From positions 3,945,460 to 4,009,459 of the forward strand of contig CP070695.1 of assembly GCA_020353515.1 (NCBI GenBank): 64,000 bases of DNA, read 5' to 3'. Every line of letters begins with the position of its first letter. The first letter of the stretch is position 1. A program made the translations under genes and the position numbers. This stretch comes from Candidatus Heimdallarchaeota archaeon (lineage in GTDB: Archaea > Asgardarchaeota > Heimdallarchaeia > Hodarchaeales > Hodarchaeaceae). Positions 3,265 to 47,606 of this stretch are shown in pieces. Under the pieces are notes generated by a model. That model had not been told where the DNA came from. It ran no database searches and saw only the letters and a program-made list of their open reading frames with translations.

Positions 3265-3792
3265 ATGAATTATAAAATAGTCCTAGCGGGAGATGAAGGG
3301 GTTGGGAAGACTTCTTTAATCAATCGTTTTGTACATGGATACTTCAAAGGTGATTACAAAGCAACAATTGGAGTTAATATTTATACTAAACAACTTCTTA
3401 TTGATTCTTCTGAAGTGAATTTACAGATCTGGGATGTGGCAGGTCAAACCTCGTTTCGTCAATTTCGCCAAAGATTTTTCAGTGGTACCCGAGGAGCATT
3501 CTTAGTGTTCGACTTAACAGTGTCTAAAAGTCTTGACAATCTTCATGTATCCTGGATAGAGGATCTCCAAAACATTGCAGGGGAAATTCCGTTAGTTTTA
3601 ATCGGAAACAAATCAGATCTAAGAGAATCAGTTACTGTTTCCTATCAGGAGGTGAATGATTTTTTATATCTTCATTCTAATATTGGAGACCATTTCATCA
3701 CTTCGGCTCTGACTGGTGAAAATGTGGAGAATGCCTTTCATAAATTGACAACATTAATGAATGTGATGATAGATAGTAAATCAAAGGACTAA
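3265..3792 (+). CDS. Rab/Ras-like small GTPase
   Basis: G1 GDEGVGKTS, G2 YKATIG, G3 WDVAGQ, G4 NKSD, G5 SAL; SD-like gagggg before ATG 3265. Confidence 0.93.
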   Translation: MNYKIVLAGDEGVGKTSLINRFVHGYFKGDYKATIGVNIYTKQLLIDSSEVNLQIWDVAGQTSFRQFRQRFFSGTRGAFLVFDLTVSKSLDNLHVSWIEDLQNIAGEIPLVLIGNKSDLRESVTVSYQEVNDFLYLHSNIGDHFITSALTGENVENAFHKLTTLMNVMIDSKSKD

Positions 3793-3898
3793 GAATTTTT
3801 GGGGTTAATATTACTCCTACGTCTATCCTTGCCCTATTATTACACGAATACTTTGGTACTATTTTTCTAAGAATTCCTTTTTTAATTTGAGCTATACT

Positions 3899-35560: not shown

Positions 35561-36577
35561 TTGAACATCGATCAATTAATTGACCATAATTTTATACCAG
35601 TTATCGATCCCACAGCCAAGGATTCTCCAGCCGAGAAAGGGGCAAATGCTTTTCTTGCCGAGTATGGCGGGATAGTAGAAGAAGTAGCTTTGGTATGTAA
35701 AAAAGAAGATGGATTGGTGACATATCGATCTGGCGCTGCGCCCAGTGATCGCAACTATGAGAATTTCTTCACAGATTTTACCGAACTAGCAAATGATCTA
35801 GGTCTTAGAACCCATGCTATTGCTTATGCTTTTGGAGATTCCTATCTTGGAATGGATCCAAATTATTCTATTGGTCGTTCTGATGGAACTATCATCCATG
35901 ATTATGTCGATCCCTCTATGGAAGGTTACTGGAAACACCTCAATTTCATTTCGCGGGAGGTAGCTACAAAGCCTATAAAGTCGTTAATCCTCCAAGAATT
36001 TCTTTTCCCAAGGCAGGAATACTCATTTGCGCGTAGAAGTGTTAGGAAGTTCGCTGAAATCTCAGGAGTGAGTCTAGACGTAACTTATCTTGACATACAA
36101 AAAGATCCAGCAATTCAAAGGATGTTTGAAGATTGGCGAGCAGAGCTTATTACTACAGCATTTCGAGAAGCAACTGAGATGGCTAAAGGAGAAACCCCAG
36201 ATCTTGACGTTGGAATGATTGTTCCTGTTGACCCAGAAACCGAGTGGAACGAGGGATATATCCGTCATTTCGGAATTAATATCGACCAGATTATTGAAAT
36301 CAGTGGCTACATTATTTATCATCTCATGCCATATTCGCCAATGTACCCTGAACCTGACACTCCAGGGTGGGATATTCTACTGCAATCGATCCGGAGTTCT
36401 GCTTTGTATGAAGAAAGTGGATATAAGAAAGCGTTATTCATTTGGGGTCTTGAAAACGAAGAGGATGTTGCTTGGTTAGACGCTTTGAAGGAGGAAGTCC
36501 GAGCTGACCATGTTTTTGGACGGTTAGAACACCCCCCAAAGTACACAGTCAAACGAGAAATTCATCGTGGTGTTTAA
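35561..36577 (+). CDS. Glycoside-hydrolase-like TIM-barrel protein
   Basis: YVDPS, EFLFP, WRAELIT, LMPY pattern reminiscent of GHL10/DUF4015 families. Confidence 0.5.
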   Translation: MNIDQLIDHNFIPVIDPTAKDSPAEKGANAFLAEYGGIVEEVALVCKKEDGLVTYRSGAAPSDRNYENFFTDFTELANDLGLRTHAIAYAFGDSYLGMDPNYSIGRSDGTIIHDYVDPSMEGYWKHLNFISREVATKPIKSLILQEFLFPRQEYSFARRSVRKFAEISGVSLDVTYLDIQKDPAIQRMFEDWRAELITTAFREATEMAKGETPDLDVGMIVPVDPETEWNEGYIRHFGINIDQIIEISGYIIYHLMPYSPMYPEPDTPGWDILLQSIRSSALYEESGYKKALFIWGLENEEDVAWLDALKEEVRADHVFGRLEHPPKYTVKREIHRGV

Positions 36578-36596: not shown

Positions 36597-37052
36597 TTAA
36601 TATTTTTGATTCCAGTGAGCGTATTTTTTCACATAATCCACAGCTTGGATTCTGAAGGCCTCGCGATCCCGTTTCCATTGACGGGAGGCTGTAGCATTCA
36701 AAGGATCATCTGGATTAGGGCTGTTTAAGAGAAATCTGATTGTTTCCACGATTTGAACAAGGCTGTAAGCTGGACTCCACTCCTTACCCAAAATACCAAC
36801 ACAGACCTTTTCCTTAAAAATGTTCACATGCCAAATAGGGGTTTTAAAACGAACTTTAGGTGGTTCAAAGGGATATTTTCGGGGAATATTGATTTCAATG
36901 AAGAAAACACCTCCTTCATACAGCCCTGAACCTAATATTTCCCCTCGCCAGTGAGTGAGGTTATTGCTAACCGTCCGAAAAGTCGGCTGTTCCCGAGCAA
37001 GTTCTTGAGCTTCAATTGCTAACCTATCTAACCATTCATCCTCTGTAAGCAT
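36597..37052 (-). CDS. Ubiquitin-conjugating enzyme E2
   Basis: YEGGVF, YPFEPPKVRF, WHVNI...VCVGIL..WSPA, PNPDDPLN; catalytic Cys present. Confidence 0.95.
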   Translation of the reverse strand: MLTEDEWLDRLAIEAQELAREQPTFRTVSNNLTHWRGEILGSGLYEGGVFFIEINIPRKYPFEPPKVRFKTPIWHVNIFKEKVCVGILGKEWSPAYSLVQIVETIRFLLNSPNPDDPLNATASRQWKRDREAFRIQAVDYVKKYAHWNQKY

Positions 37053-37333: not shown

Positions 37334-37627
37334 ATGTCCGAAGCCTATTTAGATGTATTTGAGCGCTTTGTGAAACTTCAAGAATTTATGACTGCGGATG
37401 ATAAAAAATTTCGCAAAGATCCACGTAAAACGGCACGAATAGCATCACTACTAGCGATGGCAAGTTTATACTCCAAATATCCACTTGACAAACAGTATGC
37501 TGTGTATAAAGCAATGATCCAAACAATGAGGGAGAAAATGCCTAATTTTAAAGCATTAGGGGAGTCAGTGGACGATATTGCAGCAACATTAATTCTTGCG
37601 TCAGAAATAAACAAAACTGTAAAATAA
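37334..37627 (+). CDS. Small helical hypothetical protein
   Basis: 97-aa ORF with ATG and upstream agagga. Confidence 0.65.
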   Translation: MSEAYLDVFERFVKLQEFMTADDKKFRKDPRKTARIASLLAMASLYSKYPLDKQYAVYKAMIQTMREKMPNFKALGESVDDIAATLILASEINKTVK

Positions 37628-37862
37628 AGAATTCTTCTAACTAACTCTCAAACACCCACCTCAGTTTAAGGCCAAAGATTTCGACAGAGTTCACTGTAAA
37701 TCTGAAGATGATCTCATTTCTTTTCGTTTCTTTTATCAAAAAGGATTTGTTCCAGAGAAATTTATCAAAAAAGTAGTAATAAACTTGTCGCTACCTAAAA
37801 CTAGAAAGTCAATATCTTGTAAGAGAAAAAGAAATTACCAAATAAAGGATTAAAGTGGTTCA

Positions 37863-37996
37863 TTTGTCAAAAGAAGGCGCGTGAGGGGGGAGGGAGGGAG
37901 TCCCAACGTCTAGAAAAAAAGTTTTTTCGGTTCGTCGGAACTCCAAAGTATTCAAAATTTATTTGCGTTGCTGCACTCCTCTCATTGTTCAGCTAC
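37863..37996 (-). ncRNA. Putative structured ncRNA, copy A (homolog of 44614-44751)
   Basis: Two hairpins plus a C/U tract; TATATAAA box 23 nt upstream on the minus strand (38020-38027). Confidence 0.6.
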
Positions 37997-38468
37997 TGTA
38001 CGTACGATTTTTTATGATCTTTATATATGTTTTTCTACGTTATTTCGTAATTACGTATCAGTTACTCTTACATCCTTCCTATTTATAAGGCGTATATAAG
38101 GAGAAAAATCCTGTTGGTCCTCTTATTGAGTTTTTTTTGTCAGCTAGATTCTTCTTTGATTGATTTATTTTTAAAAACTATAGTGTATTTTTGAAGATAA
38201 ATTCACTCGGTTCATTTTCTTCTCTATTCTAGGGGGATTCTACTTTGTTATTATCGAAAGGCATTTATATGGTCGGAGAGCGGAGTGATTTGAGGCGATA
38301 AACAATGTGGGATTGCCAAATGGCTTACTCAAAGTAAAGCTTCTAGTTTTTCTCCACCCTCCCGCTGCAGTTTTCGTCATTTATCTCAAACTTTGGAACT
38401 TTCTGGTTTTTCCTCATTTAATGGATTATACTTTTATAGATTTTCTAATGTCTCTCAAATTATAGGAT

Positions 38469-40565
38469 GTGTCACAAATGGAAGATCTTAGGAACAAGAA
38501 ATATGTGATATGCCCAGCATGGCCTTACGTTAATGCAGTCCCTCATCTTGGAACCGTTCTCCATCTATTAGGGGCAGATATTTTTCTTCGCTATTTAGAA
38601 CTCCGAGGAGCTGATGCAATCTCGGCGACTGGTTCTGATTGTCATGGTACCCCGATTGAAGTAGCTGCTATTGAAAAAGGTGTCTCTCCCCAGAAACTCG
38701 TTGATAAAAATCATGAACGAATTGTTGATCTGCTTAAAAAGTGGAATATTAATTTGAACTATTCTAAGACTGCAAATTCCTTTCATTACAAATGGGTTCA
38801 AGATTTCTATAGACGTTGTTATGAGAATGGGTATATTTTTGCTAAAGAAGTCCAACAATTGTATTGTGAACATGATAAACGATTCCTCCCTGACCGTTTC
38901 GTTGAAGGCACCTGTCCTCATTGTGGAGTAATTGGTGCTAGAGGGGATCAGTGTGATGCACCTGCATGTGGCAAACCTCTAAGTCCAGTCGAGTTAATCG
39001 ATCCTTATTGCCGGATTTGTAAGAATCCACCAATCAATAAAAGCACGACTCAATGGTATTTTGATTTTAGTGCTTTTCAGGAAGAACTCACTCGGTACAT
39101 TCGTCAGAATAAACAACTACCTGAAAATGCCCTGAAGTTTTCTATCAATATATTAGAAGATGGATTACAAGCTCGTACATTAACACGGGATTTAGCATGG
39201 GGTATTCCTGCTGATAAGGCGATTCCAGAAGCTAAAGGGAAATCGATTTACGTGTGGCTTGAAGCGGTTTTAGGCTATGTCTCTGCTTCTGCAGAATTAG
39301 GTGAAAGAAAACACAATGATCCTGACTTTTGGAAAACATTCTGGCTGGATCAAGATACGAGAACTGTGTTCTTTATTGGTAAAGACAACATTTTTTTCCA
39401 CACATTATTATTCCCTGGGCTCCTTTTAGGAACAAAAGAAAGCTATGGAAAACCTTTTGTCCTTCCATATAATGTAAGTACAACAGAATTTCTAACCTTT
39501 GAGGGAAAAAAGTTTAGTAAATCAAAGGGAATCGGGATTTGGATTGATGATGCCACTACTCTTCTTCCTACAGATTATTGGCGTTATTATCTAGCGGCAA
39601 CTCGACCTGAGACTAAAGATACTTCTTTTACATGGGAAGAATTCGAGCAGCGAGTTAATATCGATCTCAATGATGTTTTGGGAAATTATATTCATCGTGT
39701 CTTTGTCTTACTTCATAAGTACTGTGAGGGAAAAATTCCAGAGTGTCACCGTCTTGATGAGACTGATCGAGGGTTTGTAACCGCCATAAATGAAATTCCT
39801 GAGATAGTCGCAGATTTTTTTGACCAATTTGAATTTAAGAAGGCGGTCGCTTCAATCATTGATTTTGCACGCACAGCTAATACTTATCTTAGTACGAAGG
39901 AGCCATGGAAAATAGTGGAAACCGATTTTACCGCTGTTGAAACAACCTTATATCTCTGTACTCAGTCTCTTCTTACTCTGAGTGTTATTTTATCACCTAT
40001 TTTACCTGAAACTAGTGAGAAAATCTGGAATACTCTTGATCAAGAGGGAAATGTAGCGGACCAGGAATTCGAAGAAGCAGGAAAACTAAAACTCCAACCT
40101 GGTGGAATTGTCAAAGAATCCACCCCTTTGTTTTCAAAAATAGATATTGAAGAACTTCAGACACAACTTAAAGAATTAAGAACGAAAGGTCAAATTGATT
40201 CTACAGAGGAAACAACATTGTCAGAAGAGAAACCAAGCTCTATTCCTTTTGAGGACTTTCAGAAATTGGATATTCGGATCGGAACCATTTTAACAGCTGA
40301 AAAGATTCCCAAAACAGAGAAATTATTGAAACTTAAGGTTGATTTGGGCTCAGAAATTGGCCAGCGTCAATTAGTTGCGGGTCTAGCCACTCATAGAAAC
40401 GTAGATGACTTGATTGGCCAACGATTAACCGTTGTTGTGAACTTAGAACCCGCTACCATTCGTGGTGTTCGTTCCGAGGGAATGTTGTTAGCTGCTGTTG
40501 AAGGGGACAAACTGGGATTAATTATTCCTGATAAAGATGTATCTAATGGTACTCAGATAAGCTGA
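38469..40565 (+). CDS. metG: Methionyl-tRNA synthetase with C-terminal tRNA-binding OB domain
   Basis: AWPYVNAVPHLG, Zn knuckles, IGKDN, KFSKS, LDIRIG...SEGMLL. Confidence 0.96.
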   Translation: MSQMEDLRNKKYVICPAWPYVNAVPHLGTVLHLLGADIFLRYLELRGADAISATGSDCHGTPIEVAAIEKGVSPQKLVDKNHERIVDLLKKWNINLNYSKTANSFHYKWVQDFYRRCYENGYIFAKEVQQLYCEHDKRFLPDRFVEGTCPHCGVIGARGDQCDAPACGKPLSPVELIDPYCRICKNPPINKSTTQWYFDFSAFQEELTRYIRQNKQLPENALKFSINILEDGLQARTLTRDLAWGIPADKAIPEAKGKSIYVWLEAVLGYVSASAELGERKHNDPDFWKTFWLDQDTRTVFFIGKDNIFFHTLLFPGLLLGTKESYGKPFVLPYNVSTTEFLTFEGKKFSKSKGIGIWIDDATTLLPTDYWRYYLAATRPETKDTSFTWEEFEQRVNIDLNDVLGNYIHRVFVLLHKYCEGKIPECHRLDETDRGFVTAINEIPEIVADFFDQFEFKKAVASIIDFARTANTYLSTKEPWKIVETDFTAVETTLYLCTQSLLTLSVILSPILPETSEKIWNTLDQEGNVADQEFEEAGKLKLQPGGIVKESTPLFSKIDIEELQTQLKELRTKGQIDSTEETTLSEEKPSSIPFEDFQKLDIRIGTILTAEKIPKTEKLLKLKVDLGSEIGQRQLVAGLATHRNVDDLIGQRLTVVVNLEPATIRGVRSEGMLLAAVEGDKLGLIIPDKDVSNGTQIS

Positions 40566-40592
40566 GTTGTTTAATCTCCAAAGATAAGCCCT

Positions 40593-43500
40593 TTAACTCA
40601 AAAATAACATTCTCCCCTTTCCACTTATTTCTACAATCTTGCTTTTCCCTTTTTTATGTTCATGCAGATAACCTGTAAGTATTAACTGTTTTATCCGCTT
40701 TCTTACAGTTGGCCGGCTGATCTTTAACCCCTCACCAATCCCAGAATATGATGGTTTCAATCCGAGATTATTCTGTTGATAGACGAATCTCAGAATTTCT
40801 AAATATTCTTCAGCGATTTTAGCCATAAAACGAGGCTCTATTTGGTGTGTTTCTTTTTCTAAGATAAGTAATTCCCGTTCTGATATAGTGGCGCTATCTA
40901 TAGACAAAATAACGACTAAATTTCTTAGATAGGTTATTTCTTTTAATTTATAGACAAATTGAATCGCGTTTTCGAGACCTTCTTTTAAAAAAAGGTATTC
41001 TAGACGATCAATCAGGATCACACTTTTGCTAGGTGTGTTCTTTATAAGATTTATAAGTCTATTATATCCTTTCTCTTCTGTTAGCCAAAAAAAATCGTAC
41101 TCTCCTTCCATATATGCTCTAAAGTCTTTATTTGGAGTTCTGGAGGCAACAAATCCTTTGTACCCAATAGTAGTAAGCTCGGAAAACACTGTTTTTGATA
41201 CTGTTGGAACTTCTTCTGTGATGAGATAAACATTACCATCTTGAATTTTATATTTTAGGAATTCTTTCTTTAATTCTTCTTCGCGTTGTTTAATTGCAGT
41301 TATGTCTTCTACCATCAGTAGGAAATTCAGTGGATTACCTTTATCGTCTTTCAAAAGGGATAATGCTACCCGAACCCAAAGAATATCTTCATTTTTCTTG
41401 AGATATCTTTTCTCTGTTTGAAATGAAGAAATTTCATTATTTAGTAATTTTTTAATATGTTCTTCATCTCGTTCACGATGTTCTTCATGAGTTATATCAA
41501 GAATAGTCCTTTGAGTCAGCTCATTTCCTTGGTATCCTAACATTTCCTTAAAAACGTCATTTACTTCAGTAAAACTGAAATTTAGATCCGTTAAAGCTAT
41601 CCCAAGTGGCGAATTTTCAAAAACTGACCGAAATTTTTCTTCACTCTCCCGAAGTGCCTCTTCAGTTCTTTTATAATCAGTAATATCAGACCAAAAGCCT
41701 ACAATCTCGAGAGGTTTCCCTTTTTCGTCTTTAACAAGATTTGCTTCATCAAGCATCCAACGATAGGATCCCTTCTTATGTTGAAATCTATAAGTATTAC
41801 TATAATTCCCTTCCTCCAGAATATCTTTAAATGTGGTAGAAACTTGTTCTTTTTCATCAGGGTGTAATTTCTGTTCCCAAAACTCTGGAGTATCAATGAA
41901 GCTCTTAGCCTGATATCCTAGGATATCCTTGATGTTCTCACTCATAAAAGTGGTTGAAAAATGACCACCAGGAGTACACGAGTAGATCACTGCTGGACAT
42001 GACTTAAGTAGATATTCGAGTCTGAATTTCGTACTTCTCAGCTCATCCTCTACGATTTTTCGTTTGGTTATATCTGTGGAGATCAAACCTAATCCTTCTT
42101 CAGTCTTGAAGGCTTTTACTGAAACGATTCTTTCACCTGTAAGTGGATGACGAAAAATACGATCTGAGAGATATGGTTTTCCTGTTCTAAGGACTTCTTC
42201 ATATTTTCCAAGATGTTGTTTATCAAATTCTTCTATATTTTTCCCAATAATATCCTCTTTTTTAGTTCCTACAGGAAGCATTCCTAAACCTGTCTTATTT
42301 ATATCAATTAAATTGAATTCAGAATCCCAAATAGTAAAAGAATCGGTCGCTGCATCCATAAATCTTCTTAATCTTTCCTCACTCTTACGAAGCGCGTTTT
42401 CCATATTTTTTCGATCAGTTATATCGGCTGCTACTATCCCTAAGCCGTCTCCTACTTTAAACGCTTTCACAGATAGAGTCATATCTCCATAATTTTGAGG
42501 TGGAGCCACTCTCTCCGCGATATAGGGAATTCCTGTTTTTAGAACTTCTTTATAACGGAGAATATCTTCATGGTTGGTATGAAACTCAGTTATATTCCTC
42601 CCTAAAACCTCTGTTTTCTCAATCCCAAGTAAAAAAGTCTTCAATCCAGTTTTATTTATATCTATTAGATTTAGATCAGAATCAAAAAGAGAAAATGAGT
42701 CTGTTGCTCCATCCATAAAACTACGCAGCCTTTCCTCACTATTAAATAGAGCTTTTTGTGCGTTAATCCGATCTGTGATGTCTTCTACGCTGCCTTCGTA
42801 ATATTGCATTTTTCCATGTTTATCCTTTATTGATCGTGCATTCTCTCGAAAATGAATAACAGATCCATCAGGTCGTTCAAGATGGAATTCTAATCCCATT
42901 ACCTCTCCTTTTTCTTCAATTTCCCTTAAAAATCGATCTCTCGGATACTTCCTAATAATCGCTAGATGATTGGAATCAATCTCGATTAACTCGTCGAAGG
43001 AAGATAATCCAACTAGATTAAGGAATGCAGGATTTGCTGCGAGAAATTTGTGATCAGGTGTGCTGCGATAAAGACCAATGGGGATGTTTTCAAACAAAGT
43101 TCGATATTTTTCTTCACTTTCTTGTACTGCTTTTTTCATCCGCTTTTGATCAGTAATGTTTCTTATACCAAAGACAATTTTTAGATTATTCTCATGCTCA
43201 ATGGCTTTTCCTGAGGCTGTGACCCAAATATAATGACCCTTATTATGTTTTATTCGATATTCAAATTCAAATCTCTGTTTTCCAGACAGACATTCCGTCA
43301 GAATTCTAAAAGCATTTTCTATATCATTAGGGTGAATAAAATCATAACTATTTTTCCCGATCAATTCTCTAGGTTTATACCCAAAAAGATCAAAAATCTG
43401 TGGACTGACAAAGATGAATTTTCCCTCTTCGTCAACTTCTGCTACAACATCTGTAAGATTACTTATTAACTCACGATAATTCTTCTCACTTTCTCGTAAT

Positions 43501-44258
43501 TGTTCTTCAATGTGTGTACGTTCAGTAATGTCACGAATAATCGTAATGACTTGCACGACTGATTCATCATGCAAAATTGGGATTTTACGAGTTTCTGTGA
43601 AAAATTTCTTACCATTAATCGTAGTAGCTTCTTCAGTGACTAGAGTTTGGCCTGAGGAAAATACAGTGTGGTACTCATTTAGAACGAGATCGGATAAGAA
43701 AGGGAATGCCTCACGAATGGTTTTCCCCACTAAAGGTGTTTCAAAATTGAGTTCTTTGAGCCACTCAGAAAAAGCTGGGTTTGCTAAGATTATTACGAAA
43801 TCTCGGTCAATGACGTGAAGTGGATCTCCTAGAGATTCAATAATGGTACGATATTGCTGTTCTGATGATCGTAGTAATTCTTCAGATTGCTTACGTTCTG
43901 TTATATCTCTTGCAATCCCTAAATATCCAGTGATTTGCCCATTAATGACTTGGGGGGTAGATTTTGCCTCTAAAGTTATAATATCCCCTGACTTGCCAAA
44001 AATTCGAGCTTCATAAGGTGGGACTGTTTCTCCATCGATAGTCGCCTCGAAGCCATTAACTACCACCGACGTATCTTCAGGATGAACAATCTCGAGAAAA
44101 TGTTTTCCAATCCATTCCTCCCGAGACCATCCTGTGACTTTTTCAAATTCTTTAGTAACTGACGTAATCATGCCATCAGAAGACAGAGAAAAGATAATAT
44201 CACGAATATTATCTAAAATAAACTGACTTTGCTCCTCAATAAGGGATAGAGTATCCAA
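40593..44258 (-). CDS. Multi-PAS (about 8) + DUF835-like + wHTH one-component sensor
   Basis: Repeated HP.D and DIT.RK PAS/PAC motifs; VILIDRLEYL; ISRPTVRKRI HTH; no kinase domain. Confidence 0.88.
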   Translation of the reverse strand: MDTLSLIEEQSQFILDNIRDIIFSLSSDGMITSVTKEFEKVTGWSREEWIGKHFLEIVHPEDTSVVVNGFEATIDGETVPPYEARIFGKSGDIITLEAKSTPQVINGQITGYLGIARDITERKQSEELLRSSEQQYRTIIESLGDPLHVIDRDFVIILANPAFSEWLKELNFETPLVGKTIREAFPFLSDLVLNEYHTVFSSGQTLVTEEATTINGKKFFTETRKIPILHDESVVQVITIIRDITERTHIEEQLRESEKNYRELISNLTDVVAEVDEEGKFIFVSPQIFDLFGYKPRELIGKNSYDFIHPNDIENAFRILTECLSGKQRFEFEYRIKHNKGHYIWVTASGKAIEHENNLKIVFGIRNITDQKRMKKAVQESEEKYRTLFENIPIGLYRSTPDHKFLAANPAFLNLVGLSSFDELIEIDSNHLAIIRKYPRDRFLREIEEKGEVMGLEFHLERPDGSVIHFRENARSIKDKHGKMQYYEGSVEDITDRINAQKALFNSEERLRSFMDGATDSFSLFDSDLNLIDINKTGLKTFLLGIEKTEVLGRNITEFHTNHEDILRYKEVLKTGIPYIAERVAPPQNYGDMTLSVKAFKVGDGLGIVAADITDRKNMENALRKSEERLRRFMDAATDSFTIWDSEFNLIDINKTGLGMLPVGTKKEDIIGKNIEEFDKQHLGKYEEVLRTGKPYLSDRIFRHPLTGERIVSVKAFKTEEGLGLISTDITKRKIVEDELRSTKFRLEYLLKSCPAVIYSCTPGGHFSTTFMSENIKDILGYQAKSFIDTPEFWEQKLHPDEKEQVSTTFKDILEEGNYSNTYRFQHKKGSYRWMLDEANLVKDEKGKPLEIVGFWSDITDYKRTEEALRESEEKFRSVFENSPLGIALTDLNFSFTEVNDVFKEMLGYQGNELTQRTILDITHEEHRERDEEHIKKLLNNEISSFQTEKRYLKKNEDILWVRVALSLLKDDKGNPLNFLLMVEDITAIKQREEELKKEFLKYKIQDGNVYLITEEVPTVSKTVFSELTTIGYKGFVASRTPNKDFRAYMEGEYDFFWLTEEKGYNRLINLIKNTPSKSVILIDRLEYLFLKEGLENAIQFVYKLKEITYLRNLVVILSIDSATISERELLILEKETHQIEPRFMAKIAEEYLEILRFVYQQNNLGLKPSYSGIGEGLKISRPTVRKRIKQLILTGYLHEHKKGKSKIVEISGKGRMLFLS

Positions 44259-44613
44259 AAAACCCTCATCTCCATAATTAAATTGATTAAAAGATTCGGG
44301 AATAGTAAAGCTATACTAGGTTTTAAAGTCTGTTAACAGATGAGGAGTGTTTTCTAAACCGACAAGAAAAAGAGGAGATTTTAGAATCAAACAATATATT
44401 CGCAAGGATGGTAAGAATCTCTCATTAAACCCCAATCTCAAGGAAAAAAATAGAAACATTATACGATCCATCCTTTTAAAACCTCAACTAAAAAGCCAAT
44501 ACTCGCCAATTACGTTTCCATGTTTTGCCGCGAAAATTGCCTAAAGTTTATATGTATGAAAATGAATATCTTGGATGGATGGAAAAGTGGGTGAAGTAGG
44601 AAAAGAATAATTA

Positions 44614-44751
44614 GTAGCTGAATGATGAAACGAGTGCAGCCACGCAATTAAAAACACCCCGAAAGCCATGGTGTTCCAACGAACCGAAAAAACTTTTTTT
44701 CTAAACGTTGGGACACCCTCCCTCCCCCCTCACACCTCTTATTTTGGCAAA
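44614..44751 (+). ncRNA. Putative structured ncRNA, copy B
   Basis: GGUGUUCCAACG (44670-81) pairs with CGUUGGGACACC (44706-17); compensatory change relative to copy A. Confidence 0.6.
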
Positions 44752-45009
44752 CTGACTTAATAAACTGCCCAATTTTGTCCTTAACTTTCTATATCTCCCT
44801 TATCATTTAATCATCTTTTCACGAGTTCTCTCTCTCCTAGAGCTTGTGATGTTAAGAAAGAATCTACTCGTTCCCTACCTTTGTAAAACTTTTTTAATCC
44901 CATTTCTTGTCATTATGTAATTCTTTGAATTAAGCGACGATTTGTCGCAGGAAGGGTTTTTCACCCCTTTTTCCTGCATTTGTATGATTAAATTCAGAAG
45001 TTGATTAGA

Positions 45010-46137
45010 ATGGCAAAATGGGATCTTACTATTTATGAATCTTCGGATAAAAAAGAAATCCGTAATCGTTTTCGGCTTACTAAGAAAACCATGACCGCGG
45101 CTGGTCAACATGGTAAGGCGATTATTTTAGAAGACGAAAAGAAGAAGGAATGGCTTCTCAAGACCTTTGCGAATATTATTGATTTTGAACTGAAAGAGAT
45201 TCAAGATTTAGAGGTTGATCTAAAAGAATCTCCTGAGGATAGTCGTGGTCGGATGCATTTATGGCGTACCTTTAATGAATTGACTGCTTCTCGCCTTGGC
45301 CGCTGTTTACACTTAAATGTCCCTGAGGCTATCATTGTATGTTCTCAACAGGTTGCTGATCATCCTCTCACCCAGACTACAACGTTACCTCTTGGTGATG
45401 TAATCATACTGGATGAGGATGAAGAAGGGGAGACTGCTGAAGAATACTATCAACTTTCTGGGCGAGAACCGTATACATTAGAGACCTCCTCCAAATTTGA
45501 AAAGATATTATCAGAGAAAGGGGGTCGTGGGGATCCTACGTCTGTCCTCGCAATTCTTCTCGAAAAAATCCCCGACACTATCAATCTTGACGAATTTTTG
45601 GACTCCTATGACGATGTGGATGAAGCCTTTCAAATTGTTCAGCAAATTGATGATGGATACACTCTTCTCCCCTTTGATGTTTGGTTGAATGACCCTGATC
45701 GAAATGCAGGCAACTACCTAGTCCAATTCGATAAATCAAAACAAGCACAAAAGATTTGGGGGATTGATTATGAGATGTGGGCACTAGGATCTGATATCTG
45801 GATGGAAGAAGATGAAATAACTAAAGGTAGAAGTTATCTTACTGCGATTATTCATCCTAAAAGTAATATTTTTGATCCACGAGTTAACGAAACTGTCTAT
45901 CGGATCCGTGAATTATCCGATGAATCCCTCTCTGCAATGACACGTACTCCTCAGCTAGCATGTAAATTCTTTGAATATCACATTAGCAAGCAAGGCCTTG
46001 ACCCTGATGAGAGAGTAAAGCTAAAACAAGCCGAAACCAACCTTGAAGACTTTCTCATTGAATCTCGACCTCGCTCCGACAAACTTAGCGATATCCTTGT
46101 CCGACAGATTGGTCTTCCAAAAGATTTCAAACCTTAA
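45010..46137 (+). CDS. HipA/PI3K-PI4K-like atypical kinase
   Basis: WLLK, NELTASRLG..L.LNVP, FDVWLNDPDRNAGN, WGIDYE. Confidence 0.75.
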   Translation: MAKWDLTIYESSDKKEIRNRFRLTKKTMTAAGQHGKAIILEDEKKKEWLLKTFANIIDFELKEIQDLEVDLKESPEDSRGRMHLWRTFNELTASRLGRCLHLNVPEAIIVCSQQVADHPLTQTTTLPLGDVIILDEDEEGETAEEYYQLSGREPYTLETSSKFEKILSEKGGRGDPTSVLAILLEKIPDTINLDEFLDSYDDVDEAFQIVQQIDDGYTLLPFDVWLNDPDRNAGNYLVQFDKSKQAQKIWGIDYEMWALGSDIWMEEDEITKGRSYLTAIIHPKSNIFDPRVNETVYRIRELSDESLSAMTRTPQLACKFFEYHISKQGLDPDERVKLKQAETNLEDFLIESRPRSDKLSDILVRQIGLPKDFKP

Positions 46138-46172: not shown

Positions 46173-47606
46173 TTAATACTTTCCATCTGATGAGGATGTT
46201 CCCTTAACAATTGATACTGAGGCTGAGGCTCCAATACGGGTTGCGCCAGCCTTAATCATTTCTTCTGCTGCTTCGTGAGTTCTTATCCCTCCTGCTGCTT
46301 TAATTCCCATTTCAGGGCCAACAGTTTCTCTCATTAATGCTACATCCTCAACAAGTGCTCCTGCTGTACTAAACCCAGTGGACGTTTTAACGAAGTCTGC
46401 TCCTCCTAACTTAGATAAAAGACTTCCTTTAATTATCTCTTCCTTTGATAATAGCGCGGTTTCTAAAATGACTTTAACAAGAGCTTTTCCTTCTGCTGCT
46501 TGGACAACTGCTTCGATATCTTTTCTAACGAGATCATCATTCCCTGATTTTAACGCCCCCACATTAATGACCATATCAACTTCCTCTGCTCCATTTGCAA
46601 TCGCATCACGAGTTTCTATTGCTTTCACGGTTGGGGTAGTTGCCCCTAAGGGAAATCCAATGACTGTGCACACCTTCACAGGACTATCTTGGAGAAAGGA
46701 TTTGGCCAGTTTGACATTGGTTGGATTGACACAAACTGAAGCAAATTCATATTCTTTGGCTTCTTCACAGAGTTTTCTTATCTCTTCTTCTGTTGCATCA
46801 GCTTTTAGTACAGTGTGATCGATATATCTTGCTAAAGCTTGGTCAAAATTAGTCTGTCCAGGTTCCACTCCTATTCGTGATGCTCCACCATTAACTAAAA
46901 TTTGATACGCTGCTGTATATTCGTTAGCCACTTCTTTTCCAGCTGAACTAACAGTATATGGTAATTCCATTGATGGAATCGCCCGTACGGGGATTTCTCT
47001 AGTCATTTCACGTATATCAAGTACTGTTATCCCGATCTCTCTCAATTGGTTAATAATCTGGGTTATTCGTTGTATTACTGGTTGAGGAATATCTTCTGGT
47101 GATTTCTGACAACAAAAGATTGAATTCTTTGCAGCTATGACTGGAACGCCATTCATAAGGGCAAAAACCATGGTAATGGTTCCAAGGGAATCAGCATTCA
47201 ATGCTGCTACTTTTGCAGCGGTATTTAAGGATAAGACAGGAACATACAAAGTATCTGTATATGGTAATATTTTCTCATGAAATTCTTGAGTATACTCGGT
47301 GACGATTGTTCCTCCCTCGGAGAGACCTCTTATTTTTGGAATTCCAATTATTTGTTCTGCGGATTTTGTCATAACAACATAGATATTCGAGTAACGACTC
47401 ACAATAATAGCAATTTGACGATAAACTTCTTCTAGTTCCATATCACCCCCACAAAGTAAGATTATGACTGAATTATAGGTACTTACTGATCTTTTTGGGC
47501 CTTGGATAGGTGAAAGCACTGACTCCTTTTGAACAGCTCTTTCTTGACCTAATTTCGACAATACCTGCTCTGATATTCTTCGAACTAGCTCTTCATCTAT
47601 TTCCAT
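46173..47606 (-). CDS. deoC: Encapsulation peptide + flavoprotein-like domain + deoxyribose-phosphate aldolase
   Basis: [35 protein letters not shown]; N-domain [14 protein letters not shown]. Confidence 0.92.

Follow-up and report, generated by a model that had tools for sequence, protein, structure and literature searches.

What are the two related elements that lie in inverted orientation around a 6.6-kb segment of a Hodarchaeales MAG, one beside metG and the other beside a PAS gene? They had been read from the sequence alone as a new multi-copy structured RNA family, and cis-regulatory modules, mobile DNA, DNA-level signals and micro-ORFs have to be weighed as well. Both copies lie at the positions assigned to them. 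When copy A was used as a BLAST query against its own genome, copy B was matched along 134 nt (80% identity, E 3.9e-30), which confirms their homology. The search for further copies raised the total in the genome to four, three intact and one decayed, two of them lying outside the window (the whole stretch of 64,000 nucleotides analysed here). The features of copies A and B are as follows.

37863-37996, minus strand: copy A, homologue of copy B
44614-44751, plus strand: copy B, homologue of copy A
37967..37996, minus strand: hairpin 1 of copy A, with a 9-bp interrupted stem and a kink-turn-like loop (bulge AAU; G37983 A37982; 3-nt loop; G37978 A37977)
44614..44643, plus strand: hairpin 1 of copy B, with a kink-turn-like loop (bulge GAU; G44627 A44628; loop AAC; G44632 A44633)
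37897..37944, minus strand: hairpin 2 of copy A, with a 12-bp lower stem, a 4x4 internal loop and an A6/U6 upper stem
44670..44717, plus strand: hairpin 2 of copy B
37881..37896, minus strand: tail of copy A, CUCCCUCCCCCC then UCAC, invariant and single-stranded
44718..44733, plus strand: tail of copy B, CUCCCUCCCCCC then UCAC, invariant
38020..38027, minus strand: TATATAAA, the putative TATA box of copy A, with an A-rich, BRE-like stretch ahead of it
37869..37875, minus strand: probable terminator of copy A, the T-rich tract TTCTTTT after the tail
44547..44553, plus strand: putative TATA box of copy B, TTTATAT, inside a block conserved in B-locus orthologues
44742..44745, plus strand: probable terminator of copy B, the T-tract TTTT after the tail
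44575..44613, plus strand: putative purine-rich 5' leader of copy B, with GGUGAAGUAGGA at 44590-44601
44884..44897, plus strand: BRE/TATA-like block AAAACTTTTTTAAT, separate from and outside the RNA, that belongs to the downstream gene (45001-46137, 378 aa)

Both hairpins of the original reading are present. Hairpin 1, with the arms GUAGCUG/CAGC(x)AC, is found at the positions listed in both copies; in hairpin 2, the predicted compensatory swap from U-A to A-U is at stem position 3 and the change from A-U to G-U at position 9, and the inner stem GAAAAAA-C-UUUUUUUC has the same letters in A and B. Double-sided changes occur at five pairs of the lower stem of hairpin 2 and at three pairs of the hairpin 1 stem, where 94% of cells pair among 13 sequences. 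For the two hairpins together (26 pairs), 95.9% of cells are paired as against 44-49% when the partners are slid, eight pairs carry double changes, and none of 500 shuffles was equally good, so that compensatory changes back both. The stem sequences are wholly different between paralogue types, and of the 66 distinct copies compared between genomes, 65 nevertheless fold into a hairpin abutting the tail. The stems contain 113 G.U pairs (~10% of stem pairs), which fixes the strand of the RNA as originally assigned, and the given strand yields the better fold in 55 of 65 copies.

The exact 14-mer CCCUCCCUCCCCCC, noted earlier as a tract identical in both copies, lies at 37885-37898 in copy A and 44716-44729 in copy B and is restricted to the three intact copies in the 4.94 Mb genome. 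Within the window, tail-like patterns are observed four times against 0.33 expected; the recurrence of the tract thus exceeds chance. The 14-mer opens with two C that are still part of the stem, which leaves CUCCCUCCCCCC(UCAC) as the single-stranded tail. The tail contains CCUCC, forms no pairs in the consensus fold for alignment A2, and is invariant in its columns in both alignments A2 and A4. In the decayed copy D, tail and stem pairs have both been lost, a pattern that would speak for selection on both. The conserved core consists of a hairpin of 10-14 bp, U-rich at its apex, with (C)CUCCCUCCCC after it; the conserved unit is limited to hairpin 2 and the tail, a point that the earlier reading had missed.

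The elements are widespread beyond this genome. Among 21 sister species of the genus, 19 have one to four full-length copies at syntenic sites. Of 83 genomes in the class Heimdallarchaeia, 50, spread over all seven families, have the core with its own TATA box, and outside the class a single family (f9) alone has it. The class belongs to the Asgard archaea, of all known lineages the one most closely related to eukaryotes, a context that the earlier reading had missed. The A locus adjoins metG in 17 loci, and orthologues are closer to each other than to paralogues, both of which indicate vertical inheritance. By sequence comparison the elements form a gene family, not a local repeat, whose 5' domains vary between paralogues, as had not been recognised before; the 5' domain is missing in other families. 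A search of the whole window against Rfam 15 at gathering scores gave no match, and at E up to 10 the six copy-bearing loci gave only four unrelated chance matches, none of them on the element. The absence of an Rfam match, the covariation, the strand fixed by G.U pairs and TATA boxes at the archaeal distance all favour the proposal of a new multi-copy structured RNA family, and it is very probable that the elements are genuine genes of structured non-coding RNA.

Each gene would be transcribed from its own archaeal BRE/TATA promoter and end at an oligo-T tract, giving transcripts of ~130 nt (A) and ~170 nt (B). TATA boxes are found 25-35 nt upstream of the RNA in all families. In copy A, TATATAAA is indeed situated 23 nt upstream of hairpin 1 and G014, G017 and G011 retain it at their A-locus orthologues; with its centre ~26 nt before 37997, it would have the spacing of an archaeal promoter. 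At the copy B promoter, a GGTTTCCATGTTTTGCCGC..CCTAAAGTTTATAT block is kept in G014 and G017, and the position of the TATA box there predicts that copy B probably starts near 44575, ~38 nt upstream of the boundary noted earlier. In most copies, a T-rich tract follows 8-16 nt past the tail, and conservation falls beyond it. In Methanococcus, U-tract strength correlates with termination efficiency, according to one study (PMC8716108). Counting against the scheme, the U6-7 run within the hairpin should itself favour termination by the archaeal RNA polymerase.

The 5' part of the RNA would be an accessory domain specific to the paralogue type, and RNAs of other families without this domain would measure ~70-75 nt. 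In the A/B/C type, the accessory hairpin 1 resembles a kink-turn: its sequence provides a canonical helix, a 3-nt bulge and tandem sheared G.A/A.G pairs. The stem runs out with A-U and C-G, then come the bulge and G16 A17 ... G21 A22; these four purines do not vary in 13 sequences, while the bulge does ((G/A)(A/U)(U/C)), and the last pair of the helix is C-G or U-G, as in a kink-turn or K-loop. Unlike in a kink-turn, where a non-canonical helix extends beyond the G.A pairs, the non-canonical arm consists of just the two G.A pairs, past which there is only a 3-nt loop, and in a K-loop such pairs close a terminal loop of about 7 nt (PMC7991803). An alternative K-loop register (G13.A22, A14.G21, 6-nt loop) is compatible with eight of the 13 sequences. 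Archaeal L7Ae binds kink-turn and K-loop motifs in box C/D and H/ACA sRNAs (PMC5061560; PMC7991803), and the loop of hairpin 1, with its invariant tandem GA, is newly put forward here as a kink-turn-like motif and candidate site at which L7Ae would be recruited. The motif is limited to the A/B/C paralogue type of one genus.

The RNA differs from the L7Ae-bound sRNAs in having no properly placed C/D boxes, pseudouridylation pocket or ACA box. A box C/D sRNA has a 5' C box (RUGAUGA), a 3' D box (CUGA), a terminal stem and guides of 10-12 nt upstream of D/D'; here, UGAUGA is unconserved in hairpin 1 (orthologues show CAAUGA, CAUUGA and CAACGA), the neighbouring CUGA has its CUG in covarying base pairs, and a terminal C/D pair is absent from the aligned copies. 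A box H/ACA sRNA has its pocket 5-6 bp below the k-turn and its ACA box 14-16 nt from the pocket; the stem of hairpin 1 has single-nucleotide mismatches only and no pocket, and no conserved ANA box is found downstream.

It is improbable that the element acts in cis, as a leader, attenuator or terminator module controlling a neighbour such as the PAS sensor genes or metG. In x-type paralogues, the RNA is followed ~95 nt downstream by a PAS-domain gene in the same orientation, B adjoins the PAS gene and A adjoins metG, and the internal U-run together with the second U-tract might provide two termination points. However, A and B are directed away from metG and the PAS gene, so that the fixed, co-oriented site before a related gene that marks a cis-regulatory leader or riboswitch is not seen, and the neighbours are wholly different among families (BpsA-like, ADH, TauE, MFS, Gtr1/RagA-like). 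The gene downstream of A is convergent, and the one after B is preceded by a conserved promoter of its own, a TGTAAAACTTTTTTAATCCC block kept in three B-locus orthologues ~150 nt past the tail, which makes B a separate transcription unit. Mobile DNA, either a MITE or a cassette of which just the RNA end is left, would account for the multiple copies, the inverted arrangement of A and B, the kink-turn-like motif and the 11-nt inverted repeat that flanks copy A (37818-37828 / 38062-38072). This origin is very improbable: terminal inverted repeats or target-site duplications, which the earlier reading had named as signs of a MITE, were sought and none is common to A and B; there are only one to six copies per genome, at sites syntenic in up to 17 genomes, with orthologues more alike than paralogues; and none of the copies examined has a transposase, cas or RAMP gene as a neighbour.

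The G6AG3AG3 run on the opposite strand and the adjoining dyad could be taken for a signal in the DNA, either a quadruplex or a dyad like an origin recognition box, and short ORFs span the hairpin in A and B as if a micro-ORF of about 30 codons were encoded. Both are very improbable. The G.U pairs of the stems are mismatches in DNA, being A.C on the other strand, and the pairing preserved by compensatory changes is that of RNA, which makes the quadruplex unnecessary; no orc1/cdc6 was found among the neighbouring genes scanned. The tail is read in frames 0/1/2 in 30/27/30 of 66 copies, so the original dismissal of the micro-ORF was right; an in-frame ATG is present in just 7/13/12 of the 66, and the distance from stem start to tail shifts in steps of 1-2 nt.

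The best explanation, tentative as a whole, makes A and B paralogues within a hitherto undescribed gene family of Heimdallarchaeia, whose small structured non-coding RNAs would act in trans through the tail. The functional core common to all members would be the stable 10-14 bp hairpin with its U-rich apex, holding out, protecting and presenting a pyrimidine-only single-stranded 3' tail, (C)CUCCCUCCCC(CC), and this tail would most likely pair with purine-rich, G-rich stretches of other RNAs. Such small RNAs are known: C-rich motifs resembling the anti-Shine-Dalgarno sequence occur in the bacterial cuckoo/alpha-r14 family (CCUCCUCCC loops) and RsaE/RoxS, and sRNA41 of the archaeon Methanosarcina masks ribosome-binding sites. 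As with these, the members are small sibling RNAs in multiple copies, each its own predicted transcript, and an invariant C/U-rich single-stranded motif with CCUCC is set on variable hairpins. They differ in their Asgard host, in having no sequence or Rfam kinship with them, and in that the motif is a longer (10-14 nt) 3' tail, not a loop. Unlike for sRNAs of this type, sites complementary to the tail show no enrichment at start codons, and the earlier suggestion that the tail pairs with Shine-Dalgarno sequences found no support: complements of its 9-mers stand at such positions in 6 of 137 cases (4.4%) as against 308 of 4673 (6.6%) in shuffled controls, and start regions are enriched for GGUGA/AGGUG/AGGAG, not for G-runs, with GGAGGG/GGGAGG upstream of 0.5% of starts versus 0.4% in the background. 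These counts leave room for shorter seeds of 5-6 nt. Genome-wide, no long complementary target was detected, the 201 tail-complementary 9-mers compare with about 200 for scrambled sequence, and 16S with flanks and partial 23S of relatives have no special complementarity to the tail. That the tail functions by RNA-RNA pairing is a doubtful possibility, about equally likely as a protein partner.

The same RNA family might instead serve as a scaffold or decoy, its tail bound by a KH-type protein that recognises C-rich single strands, which is rather unlikely as a full account. The target searches that came out empty favour it, and the tail is invariant over 10-14 nt across all paralogues and families while all else changes, which suits the binding of a protein no less than a seed for pairing. 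The genome encodes a Dim2/Pno1-like KH protein, universal in archaea, beside Rio1, as well as a NusA-like KH protein, both of them candidate partners by their specificity; two more KH_1 matches fall in open frames (633 and 247 aa) whose size would suit aCPSF1 and Rrp4. On the other hand, every KH protein found occurs throughout the archaea, the RNA is confined to one class, and no phyletic match indicates a partner. In 16S rRNA, the 3' end comprises helix 45 and then the single-stranded anti-Shine-Dalgarno sequence GAUCACCUCCU. A hairpin directly before a strand with CCUCC could mimic this end: the tail has two overlapping CCUCC cores, the core of the 16S 3' end GGAUCACCUCCU in relatives, and the A/B/C type has UCAC as well. 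The likeness is architectural only, since UCAC and CCUCC stand in reversed order and the hairpin is dissimilar to helix 45. The U-rich apex could also be a site for an Sm-like protein. A report on a mammalian triple-KH poly(C)-binding protein describes a binding assay with an RNA probe containing the identical CCUCCCUCCCC (PMC4432725).

Under the preferred explanation of a trans-acting RNA, the purine-rich 5' leader of the B/C type may mask the tail partly, a feature first described here. In RNAalifold of B and C type copies, GGUGAAGUAGGA of the leader pairs with the UCC...UCAC end of the tail, the predicted partner of GGUGARGUAGGA being UCC..C.UCAC. All eight pairs are invariant and show no covariation, so the pairing is a prediction; it is counted in favour of a tail that would be able to pair with purine-rich RNA.

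Copies A and B of the small RNA lie where the sequence-only reading had placed them and share 80% identity in a BLAST search within the genome (E 3.9e-30). Both contain the hairpins with their compensatory differences, the identical A6/U7 inner stem and the invariant C-rich tract. Their outward orientation around the methionyl-tRNA synthetase gene (metG) and a PAS gene was confirmed, as was the presence of TATATAAA 23 nt upstream of copy A. The E2 gene nearby and the DUF835 domain suggested an Asgard archaeon; promoters were accordingly taken to be archaeal BRE/TATA elements, with oligo-T tracts as terminators. The features concerned are as follows (window positions, or positions on C1, the contig of the window's genome).

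35561-36577, +, 338-aa ORF, no Pfam family
36597-37052, -, ubiquitin-conjugating E2 gene
37334-37627, +, 97-aa ORF without a Pfam match
37863-37996, -, copy A
37869-37875, T-tract of copy A
38020-38027, TATA box of copy A; start predicted at about 37997
38469-40565, +, metG
40593-44258, -, six-PAS/DUF835 gene
44547-44553, TATA box of copy B within a conserved promoter block; start predicted near 44575
44614-44751, +, copy B
about 44884-44897, conserved BRE/TATA-like block belonging to the 378-aa gene after copy B
45001-46137, +, 378-aa ORF, no Pfam family
C1:273789-273923, copy C, intact
C1:1526214-1526339, copy D, decayed (locus L028/L004), flanked by genes for a Gtr1/RagA-like small GTPase and a TauE-like exporter

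This RNA represents a gene family, not a local repeat. In the 4.94 Mb genome, the exact 14-mer CCCTCCCTCCCCCC is found beyond A and B only in the third copy. In agreement with the multi-copy family that had been proposed, nhmmer and R1, a covariance model of the RNA built from 13 sequences, revealed three intact copies (A, B and C) and a decayed one (D), in which the tail is broken to CCCUCCCUUUAACCCCC and several stem pairs are lost. R1 has matches in 19 of the 21 other species of the genus, with one to four copies each, and the genomes of two relatives (G014 and G017) retain the inverted A/B pair, about 6.4 kb apart. The window's B is 89-90% identical to the B copies of these relatives and only 80% identical to its own A, indicating that the A/B duplication is old and that the copies have been evolving independently. 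According to clustering of flanking ORFs, the A locus is divergent from metG in 17 loci and is followed downstream by the conserved convergent 97-aa ORF and then the E2 gene, and the B locus has the PAS gene as its divergent neighbour. Hairpin 2 and the tail are covered by another model, R2 (78 positions), which detects this module in 50 of the 83 class genomes, with all seven sampled families represented. Among 151 genomes sampled from the phylum, family f9 (2/2 genomes) is the only one outside the class to have it; at E 1e-4 or better, it was not found in 121 genomes belonging to 20 other families. The conserved unit of this real small structured RNA family, class-wide in Heimdallarchaeia, consists of hairpin 2 and the tail. 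A search of Rfam returned no matching family, and searches of the full-text literature gave no description of this RNA.

The predicted covariation of the hairpins held up. RNAalifold on the alignment of 13 sequences gives hairpin 1 (8 pairs) and hairpin 2 with a lower stem of 12 bp and an A/U upper stem of 6 bp. By pair counting, 95.9% of cells are paired; sliding the partners by 1-3 columns lowers this to 44-49%. Both sides have changed in eight pairs, and the observed covariation was reached by none of 500 shuffles. When more sequences are included, paralogue types have entirely different lower stems (GGUGUUCCAACG, GGGCAUCCAACG, GGAGAGUCGGCG, GGGAUUCAGCG, GGAGUGUUUGCG and others), which nevertheless always pair. 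The hairpin abuts the tail in 65 of 66 distinct copies. Among about 1100 pairs, 113 are G.U, and in 55 of 65 copies the complement gives a poorer fold than the given strand; together, these counts fix the strand and favour RNA over DNA. Within the window's genus, differing 5' domains have been added: A, B and C share one type of hairpin and the x and y paralogue types have unrelated ones; the y type sits at the metG locus in five species. In distant families, the hairpin has 10-14 bp, carries a U6-7 run in the loop and is preceded at 25-35 nt by a TATA box; (C)CUCCCUCCCC and a T-rich tract come after it in that order, so that the minimal RNA would be about 70-75 nt. The architecture is modular: the 5' domain varies, the hairpin is constant and the C-rich tail is invariant.

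There are some further observations about the neighbourhoods. Among the loci of the genus, 14 keep the 97-aa ORF, in each case convergent with the RNA of the A locus and immediately before the E2 gene; its product may act in the Asgard ubiquitin system as a partner that has gone unrecognised. An x-type paralogue is located about 95 nt upstream of a multi-PAS gene in five species (for example at loci L057, on G002:C25, L058, L059, L040 and L042); the RNA-PAS neighbourhood thus recurs with differing orientation, co-oriented at x-type loci and divergent for the window's B copy. An 11-nt inverted repeat (37818-37828 / 38062-38072; TGTAAGAGAAA / TTACTCTTACA, 91% complementary) brackets copy A and its promoter. 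It is absent around copy B and is probably due to chance.

Several other identities were considered for these copies. A cis-regulatory leader is argued against by the separate transcription units predicted for A and B, by the BRE/TATA-like block that the 378-aa gene downstream of B carries for itself, and by the unrelated neighbouring genes in other families. A micro-ORF had rightly been dismissed, since no reading frame is preferred for the tail, each of the three being used at about the same frequency in the 66 copies, and there is mostly no start codon. A MITE would not account for few copies at syntenic loci with no shared terminal repeats or target duplications. A relic of an ARAMP/CRISPR-derived cassette was rejected because no cas or RAMP genes lie beside copies A-D, the x and y types or the loci of family f4; the ARAMP review makes no mention of an associated RNA. 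An origin-recognition box and a G-quadruplex were set aside, as G.U pairs and covariation act at the level of RNA. The boxes and pocket that define box C/D and H/ACA RNAs are absent. For the loop of hairpin 1, inspection by eye against box C/D, H/ACA, hammerhead, SECIS and sarcin-ricin-like motifs found the required positions unconserved or base-paired.

The same loop has what looks like kink-turn anatomy. The stem ends in A-U and C-G (or U-G), after which comes a 3-nt bulge of variable sequence (GAU, AAU, AUU or AAC). Two invariant GA dinucleotides follow, separated by three nucleotides, and the second of them adjoins the stem directly. Such a GA arrangement is described as the one recognised by L7Ae-family proteins (PMC5061560; PMC7991803), making the loop a candidate L7Ae site, although its non-canonical arm, unlike that of a kink-turn, is reduced to the two G.A pairs. 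The U6-7 run within hairpin 2 should favour termination by archaeal RNA polymerase in its own right. It could be a site for an Sm-like protein or make read-through a regulated step.

The invariant and exposed tail must be the part through which the RNA acts. The sequence-only reading had suggested that it could pair with G-rich Shine-Dalgarno (SD) sequences, for which no support was found: in this genome, the motifs enriched in start regions are GGUGA, AGGUG and AGGAG, matching the 16S 3' end of relatives, GGAUCACCUCCU, and not G-runs, and 4.4% of the tail-complementary 9-mers are placed before start codons, as against 6.6% for shuffled controls. Genome-wide, such 9-mers are no commoner than scrambled controls, and the complementary 14-mer has no extra copy. 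Neither 16S nor 23S rRNA genes were found in the assembly of the window's genome (G000), and rRNA of relatives was therefore used; complementarity of the tail to 16S rRNA with flanks (G002, G016 and G008) and to partial 23S pieces is no better than that of shuffled tails. Pairing with short purine-rich seeds is possible. The predicted start of B adds a purine-rich 5' leader, and the B/C-type leader GGUGARGUAGGA is predicted to pair with the tail end UCC..C.UCAC through pairs that are all invariant; by this model, the tail would be able to pair with an SD-like GGUGA...GGA stretch. On the other hand, the data fit a protein partner of the tail about as well as an RNA. The tail has two overlapping CCUCC cores. 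The genome encodes a Dim2/Pno1-like and a NusA-like KH protein, and has two further KH_1 matches in frames of 633 and 247 aa, whose sizes suggest aCPSF1 and Rrp4. Over 11 nt, the tail is identical to part of an RNA probe with which binding by a mammalian triple-KH poly(C)-binding protein was assayed (PMC4432725). These points are leads. It is conceivable, if unlikely, that the hairpin and CCUCC tail mimic the 3' end of 16S rRNA (helix 45 and the anti-SD strand) in a Heimdallarchaeia-specific RNP tuning small-subunit maturation or translation initiation, with a Dim2/Pno1-type KH protein or another C-rich-strand binder, plus L7Ae in some paralogues. If true, the archaea most closely related to eukaryotes would have a small-RNA layer in the control of their ribosomes.

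Asgard archaea are the closest prokaryotic relatives of eukaryotes. To our knowledge, their genomes are annotated almost solely for proteins, and we know of almost nothing on their regulatory or structural RNAs. The present family is conserved across a class, with several paralogues at fixed loci, and one sequence is unchanged while the rest of the molecule has been rebuilt several times, a pattern implying a partner under strong constraint. Such a short RNA is easily synthesised, and with Hodarchaeales cultures now being reported (bioRxiv 10.1101/2025.02.26.640444), this partner can be fished directly. R1 and R2 could be used for annotating the family in new Asgard genomes.

The 'single contig' of G000, of which the window is C1:3945460-4009459, contains 112 runs of exactly 100 N and a 31-N run at its end. 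It is a scaffolded MAG, not a closed genome, and the window's own contig within the scaffold extends from about C1:3927140 to 4009459. Among the relatives, the 16S rRNA match in G008 (C9:1695-3919, locus L119) spans 2225 nt, as compared with about 1475 nt in G002 and G016, implying an insertion of ~750 nt, either an intron or an expansion segment. G008 (C8:27759-28068 and 46367-46669) and G002 (C65:12431-12734 and 3498-3825) each have two separate matches, both confined to the final ~250 positions of the archaeal 23S model. The two matches of a genome share a contig, with ~9-18 kb between them, and could reflect either duplication of 3'-domain fragments of 23S or an LSU rRNA that is fragmented.
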